NCBI GenBank assembly: GCA_041937175.2
Contig: CP166615.1
Location: 4,256,001 to 4,320,000 of the forward strand
Direction: 5' to 3'
DNA: 64,000 nucleotides
From: Limnothrix sp. BL-A-16
GTDB lineage: Bacteria; Cyanobacteriota; Cyanobacteriia; CACIAM-69d
The notes below the pieces were generated by a model, which made no database searches, was not told the DNA's origin, and worked only from the letters and a program-made list of their open reading frames with translations. Made by a program: the position numbers and the translations under genes. This document shows, piece by piece, positions 54,360 through 61,106 of the stretch. Every line of letters starts with the position of its first letter. Position 1 is the first letter of the stretch.

Positions 54360-55214
54360 TCAAGTCGCCATCCGCCGCAGAAAGGGAATCAGCGCCTCTG
54401 ACACCTTTTCCGGCCAGTCCTCTTGGGCATAGTGACCCGTTTCGTCCATTTCCACAAACTCGCAGTCGGCAATGGTTTTGGCGGCAGTTTTGGCGGCTTC
54501 CACGGGCAACCAAGGATCGCTCGCGCCCCAGGCCACCAAGGTCGGTTTTTCCCAGCGGGTCAGGCCTTCGGTAATTTCCTGCACGGTCTGTTTCAGCCGC
54601 AGGTTTTGCAACACCGCCAGCAGGGCCCGCCCCGCCCCAGAACTGGTCAGGAACGGCCGGCGATACACATCCAAGTCCGCATCGTCCACTTGGTAGGGGC
54701 CACCACCTTCGAGCAGCCGATCAACCAGCAGCGGATCTTGGGTCATCATGTCGCCCACCAGCGGAATCGCCATTTGGGAAATTTTCCAGGGCAGCTTGGC
54801 TTCGGGAAAAATTGGAGCATTGATAATCGCCAGCCGCTCGACGCGATCGGGATTCCGCAAGGCGTACTGAATTCCCAGGGAGCCAAAAAATCCCTGGGCT
54901 ACGATCGAGACGCGATCGAGTTCCATGGCGGCCAAAAACTGCTCCAGCAGGCCGATCATCGCGTCGGGCGTGTAGGCAAAATCCAGCCGCTCGGGGCGAT
55001 CGGACGCACCAAAACCGGGAAAGTCCGGGGCGATCGCTCGGAAGCCCTGTTCCGCCAGCGCGGGCAGCACCTTCCGCCAGCTATAGCCAAAGGCCACCAA
55101 CCCATGGAGCAACAACACAGGCGGGCGATCGTTCGGTGATTCGGGCACAACCTCGCGATAGACCCAGGTGTAGTCACCGGCTTTCACCGTTTGTTCTGGA
55201 ATGCGTTTTGCCAT
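54360..55214 (-). CDS. Alpha/beta-fold hydrolase (haloalkane-dehalogenase-like)
   Basis: LLLHG...SWR, APDFPGFGASD, WGASDPWL, GHYAQEDWPE. Confidence 0.88.
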   Translation of the reverse strand: MAKRIPEQTVKAGDYTWVYREVVPESPNDRPPVLLLHGLVAFGYSWRKVLPALAEQGFRAIAPDFPGFGASDRPERLDFAYTPDAMIGLLEQFLAAMELDRVSIVAQGFFGSLGIQYALRNPDRVERLAIINAPIFPEAKLPWKISQMAIPLVGDMMTQDPLLVDRLLEGGGPYQVDDADLDVYRRPFLTSSGAGRALLAVLQNLRLKQTVQEITEGLTRWEKPTLVAWGASDPWLPVEAAKTAAKTIADCEFVEMDETGHYAQEDWPEKVSEALIPFLRRMAT

Positions 55215-55351
55215 CACGTCCTCACACAGCAAGTTGGGTTCCGTCTATCAAACACCAAATCTTGCAAAATCCAGCAAAGCGATAGGCGCGATCGCTCCGC
55301 TCAATGCCTGATCATACGGTTATGGATTTCTATCCAAGACTAGACTACAAA

Positions 55352-56179
55352 TTATTGAAAAATTGCTGGAAGAAATTGCTGAATGGTTCGACGAATAATT
55401 AATAGATGACGTTGATTAGTATGCAAGCTGGAAATGATCACTGATGAAGGCTTAGGTTGAGTAAGTAATTGCGTGTGAGCGATCAAATTTTTATTTAGTT
55501 GATAATAAAGAACGAGATAAAAGCAAGGCTTCTTAGTGGATAGTGGTGACTCTTGAAGCTTGATTTCAGTAACTTGACTAAAAGGTGCTTCAACAGTCTT
55601 AGAAATCTTGAATAGATATTGTTTGAAGATCGTGACTCGATCGCTGGTTTTGTCAAATGAGCAAGTAATTAGAATTGGGGTAGTCACTCCTTGAATCATT
55701 AAAAATAGTCCAGGGAGCAGAAACATTAAGCCGCTCATTGACCCTTCCAGGTAATCATCTTGAACAATACTGAGCATTTGGACTTGGGAATTTTGAATAA
55801 AATCATTGATTTGATTAGCAATAATTTCTTGCTTGTGACCAACAATAATTCGATGATTAACTAACTCTAGCTCAGGCGTTTTGGAGAAATACAAAACTAC
55901 GCCAACACCGCTGGCTTTGCGGACTGATGCTCGCATTAAAGGCTCACGAATGGTTAGGGTATTTTGACCCAAGTAACCATCAATTATTCGTTGACAGACC
56001 ATTGATTTTGGACTGGTTGCCAATCGCTGACAATTGAGCGTGGTTCGATTGCTGACGGCTAGCCCCACAATTAGCCCTACGGTAACAAAAGGAAGCCCCA
56101 ACAATCCCAAGCCCAGCCAATTCCAATCGCGATCGCGCAACTGAAGACGGCTAGGCGTTTGCTCTACAACTTCAATCAT
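55352..56179 (-). CDS. Hypothetical membrane protein
   Basis: Long AT-rich ORF with two TM segments; no family recognised. Confidence 0.65.
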   Translation of the reverse strand: MIEVVEQTPSRLQLRDRDWNWLGLGLLGLPFVTVGLIVGLAVSNRTTLNCQRLATSPKSMVCQRIIDGYLGQNTLTIREPLMRASVRKASGVGVVLYFSKTPELELVNHRIIVGHKQEIIANQINDFIQNSQVQMLSIVQDDYLEGSMSGLMFLLPGLFLMIQGVTTPILITCSFDKTSDRVTIFKQYLFKISKTVEAPFSQVTEIKLQESPLSTKKPCFYLVLYYQLNKNLIAHTQLLTQPKPSSVIISSLHTNQRHLLIIRRTIQQFLPAIFQ

Positions 56180-56324
56180 GGCAAGGAGCACTGAATTCTG
56201 AAGCGATCTTTGATTTCATTCATAAGGTTATTTTTGAATATAAACTCACAGCCTATCTATTTTCAATTGAAATAAAACAAATTTTTAAATTTGATAAAAT
56301 AAATGCCAACTGCGAGACTGCTGA

Positions 56325-57209
56325 ATGAAATTTGCCAATGCTTTGATGAAGCCTAAATCAGGTGATAAAGGTTCTGGTGCGATCGTCCTGTTTGGGTTGC
56401 CAGAGCTATGGCGGTGCTTTGTAAGTGGCTCAGAAGCCGACCAACTCTCGGCCGTGCCCATTGCCATGCGGCGGGGTCTAGGGGGTATTGCTTTCGCTGT
56501 TCTCGCTTTGAAAGCATCTAGTCTGTCGGTGCAACAAGCAGCGATCGAGCAACTCTTGGGTTGTACTGAAGTGATCGCCTTGGAAGCCCTGTGGCAGCAT
56601 TTCCAATTGCCCAATTTGAGCGATCGCGCTCACTATTATAATTTGCAATATTTACTGGCAAATCAGCAATGGCAGGCGGCTGATGATTTGACTATTACTT
56701 TGATTCGGGCGATCGCTGATCGATCTGATCTCTGGTTACGGAAAAGCGATCTTCAGAGCTTGCCGCAGAGTAGTTTGATAGCGATCGATCGTCTCTGGCG
56801 GATCTATAGCCGCGATCGCTTTGGGTTCTCGATTCAAGCTCAGTTGTGGAATACTTGCAAAGCAGAAACCTGTAAGCCCTTCAATTATTCCCGCAATGAT
56901 TTGTGTCGCTGTTTTGGGAGTGCAGTGGGCTGGAAAGTCGAAACCTATGATGGGCGGCATATACCGGAATACGACTTTGAGCGGCGAGCTAAAATTCCCT
57001 ACGATCTCAGCGCCCCGATCGGTCACTTACCCAGTACCTTTGCCCTCGGTGGGGGTGAGTCTCAAGGCGAGTACGATCCGCCTGATACTGAGTCAACGAT
57101 GGGATTTTATGGGTCAGGTCGCTACTACTACACCTGGAGCCAAGATTCGTTCTTTGGTCACGATTTCCTAAGAGAATTTTTCCTGATTGTCGAGTCTGTT
57201 AAGCCTTAG
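56325..57209 (+). CDS. GUN4-like domain protein
   Basis: LQYLLANQQWQAADDLT, IDRLW..YS..RFGFSIQ, FG..VGW, APIGHLP. Confidence 0.8.
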   Translation: MKFANALMKPKSGDKGSGAIVLFGLPELWRCFVSGSEADQLSAVPIAMRRGLGGIAFAVLALKASSLSVQQAAIEQLLGCTEVIALEALWQHFQLPNLSDRAHYYNLQYLLANQQWQAADDLTITLIRAIADRSDLWLRKSDLQSLPQSSLIAIDRLWRIYSRDRFGFSIQAQLWNTCKAETCKPFNYSRNDLCRCFGSAVGWKVETYDGRHIPEYDFERRAKIPYDLSAPIGHLPSTFALGGGESQGEYDPPDTESTMGFYGSGRYYYTWSQDSFFGHDFLREFFLIVESVKP

Positions 57210-57231
57210 CGATCGCCTTGCGGAGCAATCT

Positions 57232-57297
57232 CGCACCAGGAAAGTTATTCGGTTTATTTGCTCAGACTTTGCCACGTCACCATGCTCGATCGCCTCC
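57232..57297 (-). pseudogene. Remnant third copy of the antitoxin 5' module
   Basis: GGAGGCGATCGAGC-ATG GTG ACG TGG CAA AGT CTG AGC AAA TAA ACC GAA TAA CTT TCC TGG; two CAA>TAA stops relative to the intact copies. Confidence 0.88.
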
Positions 57298-57364
57298 TAA
57301 ATTCTGGTTTGACTATGTTATTGCGGAAGTGCTGGAGCAGGAACTGAATTGAGCATTGGCGTTG

Positions 57365-57784
57365 CTAAGTTAATAGGTTTGGCAATACAGAAAAAGTACG
57401 ATTGCCCGGTAAGCGGTAAACATAGAAATCCCGATCGAGGGTACAAATTATTGCTACCTCACGAGTTTCTGCTGCTGCCACTAATGAAGCATCAGCTAAA
57501 TCCATGGGCAAATTTCGATACTGCGCCATCAGCGATTGCATCCTCAGTTGCTCCGCAGAATCATTAACGTGGAAGGTGATTGCTCCAGCTTCAACATAGC
57601 TCCACAGATAGGCTTGAGCTGGCCATCCGCCACCACGTCGCAAGAGGTGCATTGCTTCGGTAAAGCAAGGCCAAGTCGTCACTAGTGGTGCGCGAACTTG
57701 GGTGGTACAAGTGCGGCAGGTTTGATGATAAGGATCGCTCTGATCAATGAGGGCAATTAAGAACGAAGCGTCAGCGAGTGTCAC
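57365..57784 (-). CDS. vapC: VapC-family PIN-domain toxin
   Basis: LADASFLIAL..D..H, CFTEAMHLL, MDLADASLV, ICTLDRDF. Confidence 0.9.
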   Translation of the reverse strand: MTLADASFLIALIDQSDPYHQTCRTCTTQVRAPLVTTWPCFTEAMHLLRRGGGWPAQAYLWSYVEAGAITFHVNDSAEQLRMQSLMAQYRNLPMDLADASLVAAAETREVAIICTLDRDFYVYRLPGNRTFSVLPNLLT

Positions 57785-57788
57785 TGAA

Positions 57789-58070
57789 TTACTCCCAGGG
57801 TTTGCCCGCAGTTTCACGAATTTTCATGTGTTTTTCTAGCCAAACATCAGTGGTTGACTCCTCAGAGTTTTGGAAGTTGAGGGAAATTACTCCCATTTGT
57901 CCCTCAAGTAATTCAGCGACGGTTTTGGGTTCTGTTGGCGCTACTTCAATGTCAACGGTAGACTGAGCTGATCGCCCCAGGAGTGATCGCACTAACTGCC
58001 AAATCAGGGCGAGGCGATCGCGCCAAGAGAGTTGTTCAGCTTGTTTGCTCAGACTTTGCCACGTCACCAT
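57789..58070 (-). CDS. Putative antitoxin 2 (shared 36-aa N-terminal module plus unique C-terminus)
   Basis: AGGAGG RBS; directly upstream of a PIN gene. Confidence 0.82.
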   Translation of the reverse strand: MVTWQSLSKQAEQLSWRDRLALIWQLVRSLLGRSAQSTVDIEVAPTEPKTVAELLEGQMGVISLNFQNSEESTTDVWLEKHMKIRETAGKPWE

Positions 58071-58151
58071 GCTCGATCGCCTCCTGGTCTCTAGTTTAGT
58101 AATTTCACAATAATAAGAATAAGAAATTCAGAAAGTGTCAAAGGGTAATAG

Positions 58152-58565
58152 CTAATCAAACCAATTTTCAAGAGTCAAGTTATTAAAATTCTGGAAATCC
58201 TGCAAATTCCTGGTAACTAGTACAAGTTGACAGGTTGTGGCGATCACTGCAATTTGTCCATCAGCAAATGCGGGTGTTAAACCGAGTCTTGCCAATCGCG
58301 ATCGCTCTTGGGCGTGCCAGTATGCGGCAGCTTGATCGTAGGGCAAAATTGGCAGGGTTTCGGCAATTTGTGCAAGATACGATCGCAACTGATTACGGCG
58401 GTTCGAGGGTGGCAGGCGATCGCAACCAAAGTTCAGCTCATGCCAAGTAATCGTAGAAATAGCGGATTGATGATGATCTCTTTCTACGCGATCAACAACG
58501 CCACGATTAGGGTTGGGGCGTTGTAACTCAGAAATAATATTGGTGTCGAGTAAAAAACGCAGCAT
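58152..58565 (-). CDS. vapC: VapC/FitB-family PIN-domain toxin
   Basis: FLLDTNIISEL, ITWHEL, FADGQIA, LVTRNLQDF; TGATG overlap with the upstream gene. Confidence 0.93.
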   Translation of the reverse strand: MLRFLLDTNIISELQRPNPNRGVVDRVERDHHQSAISTITWHELNFGCDRLPPSNRRNQLRSYLAQIAETLPILPYDQAAAYWHAQERSRLARLGLTPAFADGQIAVIATTCQLVLVTRNLQDFQNFNNLTLENWFD

Positions 58566-58798
58566 CACAAGGTGATATCTCGTCCTGGGTCGCGATCGCG
58601 CACGTCAGCCCAGGGATCATCATCACTCCAAGAGTCCCAATCAATGGTGCTGCGCCATTGGTGGAGGCGTTCCCAGAAGGTAGGAACAGGTTGAGCCGAT
58701 CGCCCCAGGAGCGATCGCACTAACTGCCAAATCAAAGCGAGGCGATCGCGCCAGGAAAGTTGTTCGGCTTGTTTGCTCAGGCTTTGCCACGTCACCAT
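58565..58798 (-). CDS. Putative antitoxin 1 (shared 36-aa N-terminal module plus unique C-terminus)
   Basis: GGAGG RBS before ATG 58798; acidic C-terminus ...DVRDRDPGRDITL; translationally coupled to vapC. Confidence 0.85.
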   Translation of the reverse strand: MVTWQSLSKQAEQLSWRDRLALIWQLVRSLLGRSAQPVPTFWERLHQWRSTIDWDSWSDDDPWADVRDRDPGRDITL

Positions 58799-58888
58799 GC
58801 TCGATCGCCTCCCACTTACACTCATAGAGTGCTGAGTTCTGTGATTTGATGAATCTAGGTCTCGTATTAGCCTGATGGACTTCAGTTT

Positions 58889-60679
58889 TTAAAGATCTGA
58901 AAACTCTAAGCTGATTTGATTGGCAGCAGTGGATTTTTTATTTTGCTGAGATGTGCTTGGCTTTGGAACTGCCCAAATCTTGACAAATTCTTCAGCAAGG
59001 ATCTTACTCCTTGCATTAATTTCGTCTTCTGTCCATTGTTCCAGCACATCAAAATACCGATTCAACTGCACTTTGCTTTCTCTAAGGATTTTGCGCTTTT
59101 CAAGAAAAGGCTTTTGACCCAATTCAGAGTTCCGCGCAGTCAGAGTTAGATTGCCCAACACATGGCGAAGACGAGCATGTGTCCTGGGAGCATTTTCACC
59201 CAAAGCATTTTTCCAATCACGATTAAGCTCCTGCGGTAGCACGTGCTCAATTGTCAAGTTCTCAAACGTCACTACTTCTTTACCCGAGAGTGCTAGCTCA
59301 ATTTCTTGCAAAATCAGGCGTGTTTTCCCTGACTCATGATGGTAGATAGGGAAAGTGCTCAGCTCCTGTTTAATGCTCTCATCATTGGGCCACTTAGTTG
59401 ACAAGAGAAAATTGGATATCTGGTCTTTCGACTGTGATTCATGAATTGCGCGTGCAAAAATTGATCCGTACTGACGTGATGACATACGAAAGATTGCTCG
59501 CCTCAATACATAGCTTTCAATCACCTTCAAATAGTCGCAAAAATCTTGTAATGATAACTTATTCTGGCAATCATCAAAATTTGGATCATAACGCGAATAT
59601 AGATGTAAAAGCAGAGGAATTGCTGTTTTGACTTCCAAGCTTCCAAACCGCTTAAAGGCTGTTAGTAGCTGATGATTTTTTTCCTGTAGCTTGACAATGT
59701 TAATGTAGTAGCGCATGTAGCGCTTAAGATCATTAGCGACTAAATCTAAATTTCTGCTTCCTTTCTTCTGAATATCTTGAATATATCGAACAAAGGTTGG
59801 ATAAAGCGCTTGACGCGGGAAATATTCAGTGTTTGAAATCAAATACCGATAATAAAACTCTGTCAGTTCATCGGGGAAGTCTTCTACTGCTTTCCCATTC
59901 AAAGCATGACGCAGTAGATCTTCAAAAGGAGTCCAATACTGATTGTCAAATTCTTTGTGACGTGCAAGTGGAATTTGCATAAAAATAAAATTTCTGATCA
60001 AGTCTGCCTCTGAAAGTTTTTCACCTTTAAAGTTGAGGCTTTCAAATATTTGAGTCGGGTTATCACTGTCATCAAGATCAACCTTGACCAATCTGAGTCG
60101 TTGCATGATAGTCGTGTACAAGCCCTCCAACTGATCCAGGGGAGCTTTCTGATTAAAAAGATCAGGAGAGCTTAAATGATCTCTTATTTTGTCTCGAAAG
60201 AACAAAAAGCACTTATATACAAGAGACTCTTTGTCAATTGGGTGATTTCTGTTTTCTATAACAATTCCAGAAAATGTGTTTTTGTCTTCTAGTCTTGGTA
60301 ATACTTTAGGTCGACTATGACCTGTGCTAGGTTCTATGAAAGACAGCTCCGACTCAATAGACTTGGAAAAAGCTTCCAGATTCTCTTCCTTGGCTACATC
60401 GCGTAATGCACAGAAGATCATGGTTAATGTTACGAGTCGCTGTTGTCCATCAACAACTATGTGTTGTACAACATTCCCAGAAAGTACCTGGGTAATTAAA
60501 ATCAATGGACCGATAAAGTGTGATGGACGTTGATCAGAGGATTCCGCGACCGATAAGATGTCTATCCAAAGAGTTTGCCACTTTTCTTCTGACCAGCGAT
60601 ATCCTCGTTGAAATTCAGGAATAATATATTCGACTCTACTTGAAAAGATACTTGCTACTGTTGAATCACTGGCACGCAT
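58889..60679 (-). CDS. gmrSD: GmrSD-family type IV restriction protein (DUF262 + DUF1524 HNH)
   Basis: IPEFQRGYRW, VVDGQQRL, IFESLN; TIEHVLPQ...GNLTL...N. Confidence 0.9.
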   Translation of the reverse strand: MRASDSTVASIFSSRVEYIIPEFQRGYRWSEEKWQTLWIDILSVAESSDQRPSHFIGPLILITQVLSGNVVQHIVVDGQQRLVTLTMIFCALRDVAKEENLEAFSKSIESELSFIEPSTGHSRPKVLPRLEDKNTFSGIVIENRNHPIDKESLVYKCFLFFRDKIRDHLSSPDLFNQKAPLDQLEGLYTTIMQRLRLVKVDLDDSDNPTQIFESLNFKGEKLSEADLIRNFIFMQIPLARHKEFDNQYWTPFEDLLRHALNGKAVEDFPDELTEFYYRYLISNTEYFPRQALYPTFVRYIQDIQKKGSRNLDLVANDLKRYMRYYINIVKLQEKNHQLLTAFKRFGSLEVKTAIPLLLHLYSRYDPNFDDCQNKLSLQDFCDYLKVIESYVLRRAIFRMSSRQYGSIFARAIHESQSKDQISNFLLSTKWPNDESIKQELSTFPIYHHESGKTRLILQEIELALSGKEVVTFENLTIEHVLPQELNRDWKNALGENAPRTHARLRHVLGNLTLTARNSELGQKPFLEKRKILRESKVQLNRYFDVLEQWTEDEINARSKILAEEFVKIWAVPKPSTSQQNKKSTAANQISLEFSDL

Positions 60680-61106
60680 AACTTTTGCTCTCCTTCCTAT
60701 AGCCAAAAATCAATCAACTTACTGTATTCAACCTATTGAATTTGATGGATTTTGCACACTAGCAATCGTTCAATATTGATCCCAATTTAGTGTTGGCAGA
60801 TCTGGGGGTCACTGCAAGCATAATTCAAGATGCCTTAATAAGGCTAGAGTGCAAAGTAGCTTGGTGTGATTTGTGTTGGAAAGATTACTCTGAGCGATCT
60901 TTCAGATCAATTCATTGCTGAGCGCTAACGAGCAACACTATCCAGCATACCAATGCTCCAAGTGATTGATCCCAATATGCCCTTCTAGCACCAATCGTTC
61001 ACGACGATCGCCCGCTTGCAACTGACCCCTGCGATCCTAGACTGTTAAGCACGATCGCCGATGCTCGGCATCACCGCTACAGCGCTCGCAGGAGACAGAA
61101 CACACC

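Follow-up and report, generated by a model that had tools for sequence, protein, structure and literature searches.

A shared antitoxin head, probably grafted by recombination, in tandem VapBC-like operons of Limnothrix sp. BL-A-16

Background

How do two adjacent toxin-antitoxin (TA) operons come to begin with the same 36 codons and then continue into unrelated proteins? The question is raised by a locus in the cyanobacterium Limnothrix sp. BL-A-16 (GenBank assembly GCA_041937175.2). It lies within 64,000 nucleotides of contig CP166615.1 (positions 4,256,001 to 4,320,000), a stretch that we call the window and whose numbering is used below unless a contig (C1) or a locus (L number) is named. 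The genome carrying the window is referred to as G000 and its contig as C1, and G001 and G002 are congeneric genomes with which it was compared.

On the minus strand, positions 57209-58812 hold, in order, a leader and the antitoxin gene A1, the toxin gene vapC1, a spacer, a second leader and the antitoxin gene A2, vapC2, and a dead antitoxin start. With a probability of about 0.68, we consider that two type II TA operons resembling VapBC stand here in tandem, followed by the dead 5' end of a third, and that their antitoxins became chimeric through recombinational grafting of a common head onto different tails.

Results and discussion

One antitoxin head on unrelated tails and toxins

The shared segment, or module, is 122 nt long and consists of a 14-nt leader and 36 codons. 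Copy 1 comprises the A1 leader (GGAGGCGATCGAGC; 58799..58812, minus strand), which carries a ribosome-binding site (RBS) and is inside the repeat in G000, and A1 codons 1-36 (58691..58798, minus strand; MVTWQSLSKQAEQLSWRDRLALIWQLVRSLLGRSAQ). Copy 2, made up of the leader and A2 codons 1-36 (57963..58084, minus strand), is 93% identical to it. A repeat search of the window returned the two as a direct repeat of 121 nt (57964-58084 and 58692-58812, 93% identity), and an 80-nt repeat family added a third copy at 57231-57310. Four DNA copies of the module are present in G000, three at the array and one at C1:1641797-1641912 (79% identity).

The two live copies have identical leaders and differ at 9 of 108 coding nucleotides. 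All nine differences are synonymous and all are transitions, eight at third positions and one at the first position of a TTG/CTG codon pair, and the copies have no uninterrupted match of more than 31 nt. Measured in 20-nt steps, identity is 0.90-0.95 within the module and 0.10-0.40 beyond it on both sides, and the drop at each edge is completed in one step.

In a BLASTP comparison of the products, A1 (77 amino acids (aa); 58565-58798, minus strand) and A2 (93 aa; 57789-58070, minus strand), the 36 head residues are all identical and the tails have no similarity. Tail 1 corresponds to A1 codons 37-77 and the stop codon (58565..58690, minus strand), and tail 2 to A2 codons 37-93 and the stop codon (57789..57962, minus strand). 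As in VapBC systems, each small antitoxin gene lies directly upstream of a toxin gene. The start of VapC1, a PIN-domain toxin of 138 aa (58152-58568, minus strand), overlaps the A1 stop by 4 nt (GTGA), and the A2 stop is 4 nt ahead of the start of VapC2, a PIN-domain toxin of 139 aa (57365-57784, minus strand). Both match the Pfam PIN family (PF01850) above its cut-off of 23.6 bits, VapC1 with 30.8 bits and VapC2 with 32.0 bits; matches of VapC1 to NCBIfam models of tRNA(fMet)-specific VapC fall under the cut-offs of those models. VapC2 belongs to a PIN clade unlike that of VapC1, and alignment of the two toxins gives E = 14, that is, no similarity. The toxins are therefore far older than the module.

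The initial annotation, made from the letters of the window, had described this order of parts, the nine exclusively synonymous differences, tails unrelated after codon 36, very divergent PIN toxins and two-part antitoxins with an abrupt seam. The open reading frames (ORFs), the repeats, an in-register alignment and BLASTP agree with it on each of these points.

A helix under strong purifying selection

Counted by the Nei-Gojobori method, the two live copies have 9 differences at 26.0 synonymous sites and 0 at 82.0 nonsynonymous sites, which corresponds to a dS of 0.46. When nine random transitions were placed in the module, all were synonymous in just 6 of 200,000 trials; the module peptide is thus under very strong purifying selection. 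The GUN4-like gene next to the array has a dS of 0.56 between its G000 and G002 orthologues. The similarity of the two values places the separation of the module copies at roughly the age of the species in this genus and speaks against recent homogenisation. In a further copy of the module, in the orphan antitoxin at C1:1641807, synonymous sites are saturated relative to the array module.

The conserved peptide is predicted to form one helix (residues 4-35) with a mean predicted local distance difference test (pLDDT) score of 69.5. Homodimer predictions for two copies of residues 1-40, made from a nine-row alignment and without controls, gave scores of 0.20 and 0.17, below the mark of 0.42, and speak neither for nor against binding.

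A resemblance of the module to the TIGR02574 family had been suggested. We rejected identity with TIGR02574/PF09720 (Unstab_antitox), since A1 and A2 have no match in Pfam (E <= 1) or NCBIfam (E <= 10) and none of nine heads of the module family matches any Pfam model at E <= 10. In the ESM Atlas, a score of 0.76 points to a cluster in which 11% of members carry PF09720, a sub-threshold lead. The head also matches neither the Pfam profile of PF10047 (DUF2281) nor a profile of its members, the hhalign probability against six DUF2281-like heads being 3.5%, and a head profile has no match among PDB sequences. Searches of Pfam, NCBIfam and PDB sequences found no recognised N-terminal DNA-binding domain of the AbrB, ribbon-helix-helix (RHH), Phd/YefM or helix-turn-helix (HTH) type in A1 or A2.

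A looser version of the head, 38-47% identical and conforming to LSxxDRxxLxWxxxxSL (pattern L..(..)LS...R..L.W.....L), begins other small ORFs that adjoin PIN genes in G000 and its relatives, and one that is upstream of a SocA/Panacea gene. The latter is found at C1:537730-538593 in G000 (locus L084, 731-1594), where an 83-aa ORF with the module-like head MTWLELCDRTFQLSVKNRWRLLWAIVRSLL is directly upstream of a SocA/Panacea protein (PF13274, E 1.9e-25) in the place of a PIN protein.

Tail 1 and VapC1 as an old unit

Orthologues of VapC1 occur in 155 of 401 sampled genomes at E <= 1e-10. Among the 24 best loci, whose toxins are 48-56% identical to VapC1, 23 have an upstream antitoxin. In Pfam searches, the heads of these 23 antitoxins correspond to PhdYeFM in 10 cases (6 above the cut-off), VapB_antitoxin in 3 (1 above), DUF2281 in 1 (weakly, with 18.1 bits vs 26.5) and nothing meaningful in 9. 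Their last ~40 residues nevertheless share FW..L..FR...I.PDEIW..[IL]RDR.pGREV.L, which is also present in tail 1. We searched a profile of the last 45 residues of the 23 antitoxins, none of them from Limnothrix, against 88,765 six-frame ORFs of G000. The A1 tail was the top match (E 7.2e-5; runner-up, E 0.91). In the reverse direction, phmmer with tail 1 matched 11 of 46 collected antitoxins, all of the VapC1 set.

Judged by this homology behind varied heads near VapC1 orthologues, tail 1 and VapC1 form an old, co-inherited unit whose head has been exchanged repeatedly, and for which the module is the head in this genus. Tail 1 is presumably the neutralising part and specific for its toxin clade. 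A parallel case is provided by the orphan antitoxin at C1:1641807. Over 35 aa, its tail shares 49% identity (E 7e-12) with the antitoxin that accompanies the PIN gene at C1:1344569-1344979, and that antitoxin bears a head other than the module. VapC2 also has cyanobacterial orthologues of its own (24 loci, 43-61% identical); searches with tail 2 are considered below with the other points that count against the grafting model.

Distribution and continuations of the module

Among 41 related genomes, the module is found in 4 including G000, with strong matches restricted to the three of the genus itself. G001 has three matches and G002 four, the latter mostly to distant members of the family. A search of 5.8 billion clustered proteins yielded 19 candidates, of which 18 pass E <= 0.01, and where the source is named it is Limnothrix or Oscillatoriales. 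With phmmer, 9 of 1.84 billion protein representatives contain the module (E <= 0.001), and a scan of sequence collections with a degenerate 31-nt pattern returned three genome loci and three metagenome loci only. The module is N-terminal in every protein except P0014, where an N-terminal extension precedes it and it starts at residue 37.

At least six different sequences continue from the module. Tail 1 follows it in P0001-3 and P0012, and tail 2 in P0004-8 and P0015. Tail 3 is found in P0009 and P0016 and is followed by a third PIN gene in metagenome contig L031. An orphan type is represented by P0010, P0011, P0013, P0014 and P0020, the C-terminal part of a DUF29 protein (31.3 bits) by P0017, and another tail by P0022. 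P0019 (139 aa) is a composite of the module, tail 3, the start of the third PIN protein and tail 1: a few residues resembling that PIN start are followed by a tail 1 that is 83% identical to A1 residues 38-77. This arrangement has the appearance of an in-frame deletion between neighbouring cassettes for which the module repeat was not used.

The orphan antitoxin of G000 (C1:1641807-1642046; locus L004, 1511-1750) bears the module and has no toxin gene beside it. It is situated between a glyA-like gene and a large TPR/CHAT-like ORF, and this synteny is kept in G000, G001 (L014) and G002 (L011, L028).

Cassette content in related genomes

The locus has a different architecture in each genome. 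In G002, a decayed module remnant lies between the GUN4-like gene and a DUF5131 gene, and no cassettes are present. In G001, the order is a DUF5131 gene, a frameshifted module variant, an unrelated 101-aa antitoxin with RelE, the module with tail 1, a decayed vapC1, and an ABC-2 permease gene. The vapC1 remnant of G001 consists of the first 60-90 nt with an early stop, and A1 has been retained there as an orphan after loss of its toxin. The RelE/ParE-family toxin is 124 aa long (30.5 bits), and its 101-aa antitoxin matches no Pfam family. The RelE cassette occurs at 1611-2277 of L010 (minus strand) in G001, where two module copies flank it, and at 1663-2277 of L032 (plus strand). G000 lacks both the DUF5131 gene and the RelE cassette and has a GmrSD gene in their stead. 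The 5' flank of the G002 remnant is that of the variant copy in G001 and its 3' flank is that of the remnant in G000, with the changeovers exactly at the module edge.

Contigs of a further isolate, X11, add a fourth combination. In these, the RelE gene ends at a junction with the A1 module that has 30 of 30 letters as in G001, a single 677-nt contig covers the stretch from the A1 tail through vapC1 to the A2 leader, and a module/tail 3 junction agrees with L031 at 30 of 30 letters. The contigs break inside the repeat, and the cassette order is therefore reconstructed, not read. X11 would represent a fourth architecture close to an ancestral array that may have run from the DUF5131 gene via a variant head and the RelE cassette to cassettes 1 and 2, the dead head and the GUN4-like gene. 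Cassette content thus differs among all three species-level genomes and the public contigs, with breakpoints at module edges. Read depth in data sets X1 and X4, where A2-VapC2 was covered and VapC1 was partly uncovered or at half depth, does not represent copy number and is left out of the evidence.

G000 also contains a second tandem array of the form antitoxin-PIN-antitoxin-PIN (C1:2979920-2981648; L019, L021). Its two cassettes are 90-100% identical to each other over ~160 nt at the start (antitoxin head) and ~160 nt at the end (C-terminal half of the PIN gene), whereas the middle (antitoxin tail and N-terminal half of the PIN gene) is ~50% identical. The orthologous locus of G002 has one cassette with a different antitoxin tail. 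On the basis of these near-identical ends and diverged middle, this genome may be prone to forming mosaic tandem TA arrays.

The dead copy and an insertion variant

The third module copy of the window (57209..57297, minus strand), which adjoins the GUN4-like gene, had been described as a module remnant. It is indeed a third copy, but a pseudogene of an insertion variant and not a simple truncation: it retains the leader and the ATG, has two TAA stops and contains a 24-nt in-frame insertion (..SWCEIAPQGDR..). It reaches ~57209 and ends at GGCGATCGC, against the stop of the GUN4-like gene. G002 has an orthologous remnant with the same 3' junction.

The insertion encodes EIAPQG[DY]RQ and has its own GGCGATCGCC. 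It is intact in database proteins (..SWREIAPQGY[RH]QRLALIW..), and its sites are 57209-57283 of the window (minus strand), ~2290-2418 of L010 (minus strand), 1527-1646 of L032 (plus strand) and 1525-1672 of L033 (plus strand). The contexts include tail 2 (P0015), a tail 3-like sequence (P0016), the DUF29 fragment (P0017), a position ahead of the RelE cassette and the dead copy of the window. A dispersed mini-element was considered as the source of the insertion and rejected, the remnant being its sole exact copy in G000 and four other places having 3-4 mismatches. In four-gamete tests on module DNA, most incompatibilities past position 62 reflect a register shift caused by a 5-nt duplication in one copy, and the robust incompatibility is that of site 42 with the insertion state only.

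Junctions and HIP1 sites

On the 5' side, similarity extends to position -14 in four module copies and only to the ATG in another three, with unrelated DNA further upstream. The leader GGAGGCGATCGAGC is the same in all three copies of the window and in one G001 copy, and the remaining copies of the relatives match from the ATG onward and have different leaders. The proposal that the RBS is part of the module thus applies to the G000 copies but not to some of those in relatives. On the 3' side, similarity between A1 and A2 ends after codon 36. The limit for tail 3 falls between GGGGCGATC and A, that of copies preceding RelE cassettes between GTGC and GATCGC, and that of the dead copies directly after GGCGATCGC. 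The 3' junctions are spread over codons 27, 34 and 36 and the interior of the insertion, and a fixed crossover site is thus absent.

Three of the four 3' junctions resolved in DNA fall within 0-2 nt of where a GCGATC (HIP1-like) site begins or ends, a statistic that is post hoc, has n = 4 and concerns a module in which every position is near such a site. Copy 1 has two exact HIP1 sequences (GCGATCGC) and two near sites; in copy 2, G>A changes have abolished two of these four. CGATCG occurs 4 times in the 122 nt compared with once per 173 nt genome-wide, and the frequency of HIP1 (GCGATCGC) across G000 is once per 870 nt. The location of junctions at GCGATC is suggestive of microhomology or HIP1-assisted joining. 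HIP1 reportedly promotes excision, according to the title alone of a 1997 paper. The pattern fits earlier proposals: a preprint suggests a Chi-like role of HIP1 in homologous recombination (10.1101/2024.09.10.611283), and HIP1 has also been discussed as recombination-related (PMC5861425).

Origin of the array

In the model that we favour, a genus-specific helical head would have replaced the heads of several pre-existing antitoxins. A young, genus-restricted helix of 36 residues would have been set before several different tails by recombination, and selection would since have kept it invariant. The tails may block the PIN active site, by analogy with other VapB antitoxins, and the shared helix could supply a common function, for example oligomerisation or docking to a common partner. 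The GCGATC-rich module copies, as direct repeats, may have served over the history of this genus as seams for the occasional gain, loss or fusion of cassettes by homologous or microhomology-mediated events, and would not constitute a dedicated, currently active exchange system.

Several points weigh against this model. Toxicity of the PIN proteins and their neutralisation by the antitoxins are predictions from sequence; for cassette 1, the conservation of the tail with the toxin clade lends neutralisation indirect support. The module has no DNA-binding or other family match in Pfam, NCBIfam or PDB sequences, and its predicted fold is a single helix at moderate confidence only. For cassette 2, a profile of 23 tails of the VapC2 clade has A2 as its sole match, with a non-significant E of 0.19; a profile of the 14 closest misses A2 and returns two unrelated ORFs (E 0.28 and 0.41), and phmmer with tail 2 matches 0 of the 46 collected antitoxins. 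Tail 2 and VapC2 could also be an old unit, which these searches do not establish. Tails 1 and 2 were not found behind other heads among near relatives by a word-indexed search that is insensitive for short tails and that returned module-bearing proteins only (tail 2 in 6 of them, tail 1 in 3). The sample comprises three species-level genomes of the genus together with short contigs whose ends fall within the repeat, so that both the ancestral array and the sequence of events have had to be reconstructed.

An alternative is an active, integrase-free cassette array, in which the module is a dedicated platform, perhaps stimulated by HIP1, and cassettes are being swapped at present within the genome or by natural transformation. 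Such activity would account for breakpoints between genomes at module edges, and the junctions adjoining GCGATC, the density of CGATCG in the module and the proposed Chi-like role of HIP1 are also in its favour. In addition, the state of the 24-nt insertion crosses tail types (P0015 vs P0004 and P0016 vs P0009) and is incompatible with site 42, and at the nine variable sites the A1 module of G001 has a mixture of the states found in A1 and A2 of G000. However, the dS of 0.46 between adjacent copies indicates that they have neither exchanged sequence nor been homogenised recently, perfect matches between them do not exceed 31 nt, and the junction positions are not constant. Some events bypassed the module altogether, namely the vapC1 deletion in G001 and the P0019 fusion. 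No deletion or circle joints were seen in three contig data sets, a type of data that drops rare variants, and the association of junctions with HIP1 is subject to the limits given above, the module being dense in sites regardless. We regard current activity of this kind as unlikely.

An extended form of this idea is similarly doubtful. In it, the 36-codon head would be a portable, HIP1-studded coding seam, an integrase-free counterpart of attC, and recombination that may be HIP1-stimulated or fed by transformation would move cassettes across the Limnothrix population. The heads would stay identical through a shared partner, such as each other, a protease adaptor or an operator.

The initial annotation had anticipated much of this evidence: further module-tail fusions, variable cassette content at module-bounded sites and HIP1-like sites near junctions have all been found. 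It had regarded the module as a recombination platform, and the breakpoints at module edges are in keeping with that description, whereas present-day activity is unsupported. Hetero-oligomers and cross-regulation, which it also put forward, would be hypothetical consequences of the shared head. Cassette content differs in relatives, other fusions exist and similarity is lost abruptly, and these were the observations on which that annotation had made its proposal depend.

Concerted evolution without mobility or grafting, in which the heads of A1 and A2 were always related and gene conversion between neighbours kept them alike, is a poor explanation. It would be consistent with the family-level heads (38-47% identical) in other PIN-linked antitoxins of G000 and its relatives, and with the near-identical ends and diverged middle of the second array. 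Against it, a near-identical module is also fused to tails at loci not linked to the array and in further genomes, the DUF29 fragment and pseudogenes among them. The dS of 0.46 speaks against recent conversion, and heads that are less than 50% identical lack the homology needed for conversion to start.

The other two explanations are very improbable. Had a single TA operon been duplicated in tandem long ago, its head being conserved while tail and toxin diverged fast, the tandem layout with its like gene order and orientation would be explained, but this origin is excluded for practical purposes by the abrupt loss of similarity, within a few nucleotides and next to modest synonymous divergence in the module, and by PIN toxins that have no detectable similarity (E = 14) and each have their own cyanobacterial orthologues (43-61% identity). 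In the second, the module would be one end of a small mobile element, reading outward, and the fusions would be read-through products at its insertion sites. This fits its own RBS and start codon and its position ahead of gene fragments (P0017) and in dead copies. Yet copies are few (4 in G000, 3 matches in G001 and 4 in G002), a repeat search found no inverted-repeat partner or second end, and beyond the upstream limit, at -14 or the ATG, the DNA is unrelated. Strong purifying selection on the peptide and translational coupling of the tails to toxins also count against it.

Surroundings of the array

An AT-rich spacer of 67 nt separates cassette 1 from cassette 2 (58085..58151, minus strand), and no counterpart is present 5' of A1. 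Upstream of the array is a gene for a GmrSD-type restriction enzyme (58889..60706, minus strand; Pfam GmrSD_N and GmrSD_C), which has no DNA match in G001-G003 and is thus specific to G000 among the genomes compared. The GUN4-like gene on the other side (56325..57209, plus strand; Pfam GUN4) is convergent with the array. A scan of 57100-59000 found no promoter-like and no terminator-like sites, and the sole Rfam match was to a snoRNA, below threshold (21 bits vs 56).

Positions 55200-61000 have a G+C content of 37-53%, compared with ~60% in both flanks and 55.2% in the whole genome. This low-GC stretch contains an unannotated ORF of 279 aa (55352-56191), the GUN4-like gene, the TA array and the GmrSD gene.

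Comparison with known systems

The order of antitoxin and toxin, the overlapping or nearly abutting genes and the PIN domains above the Pfam cut-off are those of VapBC systems, and tail 1 is homologous to tails found behind PhdYeFM or VapB/RHH heads near orthologous toxins. The difference is in the head, which here is a 36-residue predicted single helix and not a recognised DNA-binding domain. The locus would therefore be expected to work like a VapBC pair that lacks this one feature. The PF09720/TIGR02574 and PF10047 (DUF2281) families are comparable in size and in a loose pattern of a short helix, LS or LP, and a hydrophobic helix; a profile match is absent for A1, A2 and the nine family members.

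Integron cassette arrays likewise consist of small units arranged head to tail with a repeated sequence between them and a content that varies among strains. Unlike an attC-type imperfect palindrome, the repeat here is the coding start of an antitoxin, and the repeat search found no inverted repeat within or around it. Junction positions are also not fixed in the present array. The ORFs flanking it are the GmrSD gene, the GUN4-like gene and an aconitase-sized ORF, and general scans of the ORFs in 55.5-64 kb, none of them aimed at integrases, revealed no integrase. With respect to HIP1, the module contains such sites and three of four resolved junctions abut one; R-S and D-R codon pairs can themselves spell HIP1, and a causal role here would be a suggestion from sequence at most.

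The closest precedents are modular antitoxins. Exchangeable, linearly attached neutralising elements are described by Ernits et al. 2023 (PMC10440598), and antitoxin modularity and partner swapping have been established by large-scale comparisons (PMC10440598, PMC3879964, PMC2701414). One antitoxin domain can be paired with several toxins, reportedly as in Panacea (PMC8832971) and MazEF shuffling (PMC3879964). In the literature covered, from which subscription journals were absent, we found no description of adjacent TA operons that have a near-identical antitoxin 5' segment on unrelated tails.

The array reported here resembles these systems in having an exchangeable linear neutralising element on a separate antitoxin domain. 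Whereas the known patterns were deduced across deep phylogeny from protein families, the shared domain is here ~93% identical in DNA between adjacent operons of one genome and restricted to one genus, and junctions and decayed by-products are visible. The locus defines an N-terminal antitoxin element that is unmatched in Pfam, NCBIfam and PDB-sequence searches. It raises the questions of which recombination route leads to new antitoxins, whether HIP1 biases it, and why a helix without a known domain is invariant across paralogous antitoxins. Most of all, it permits the rebuilding of antitoxins to be viewed at nucleotide resolution within one genus, with junctions that can be read base by base and with by-products that include a dead head, an antitoxin orphaned by the loss of its toxin, a fusion of tail 3 with tail 1, and a head joined to a DUF29 fragment.

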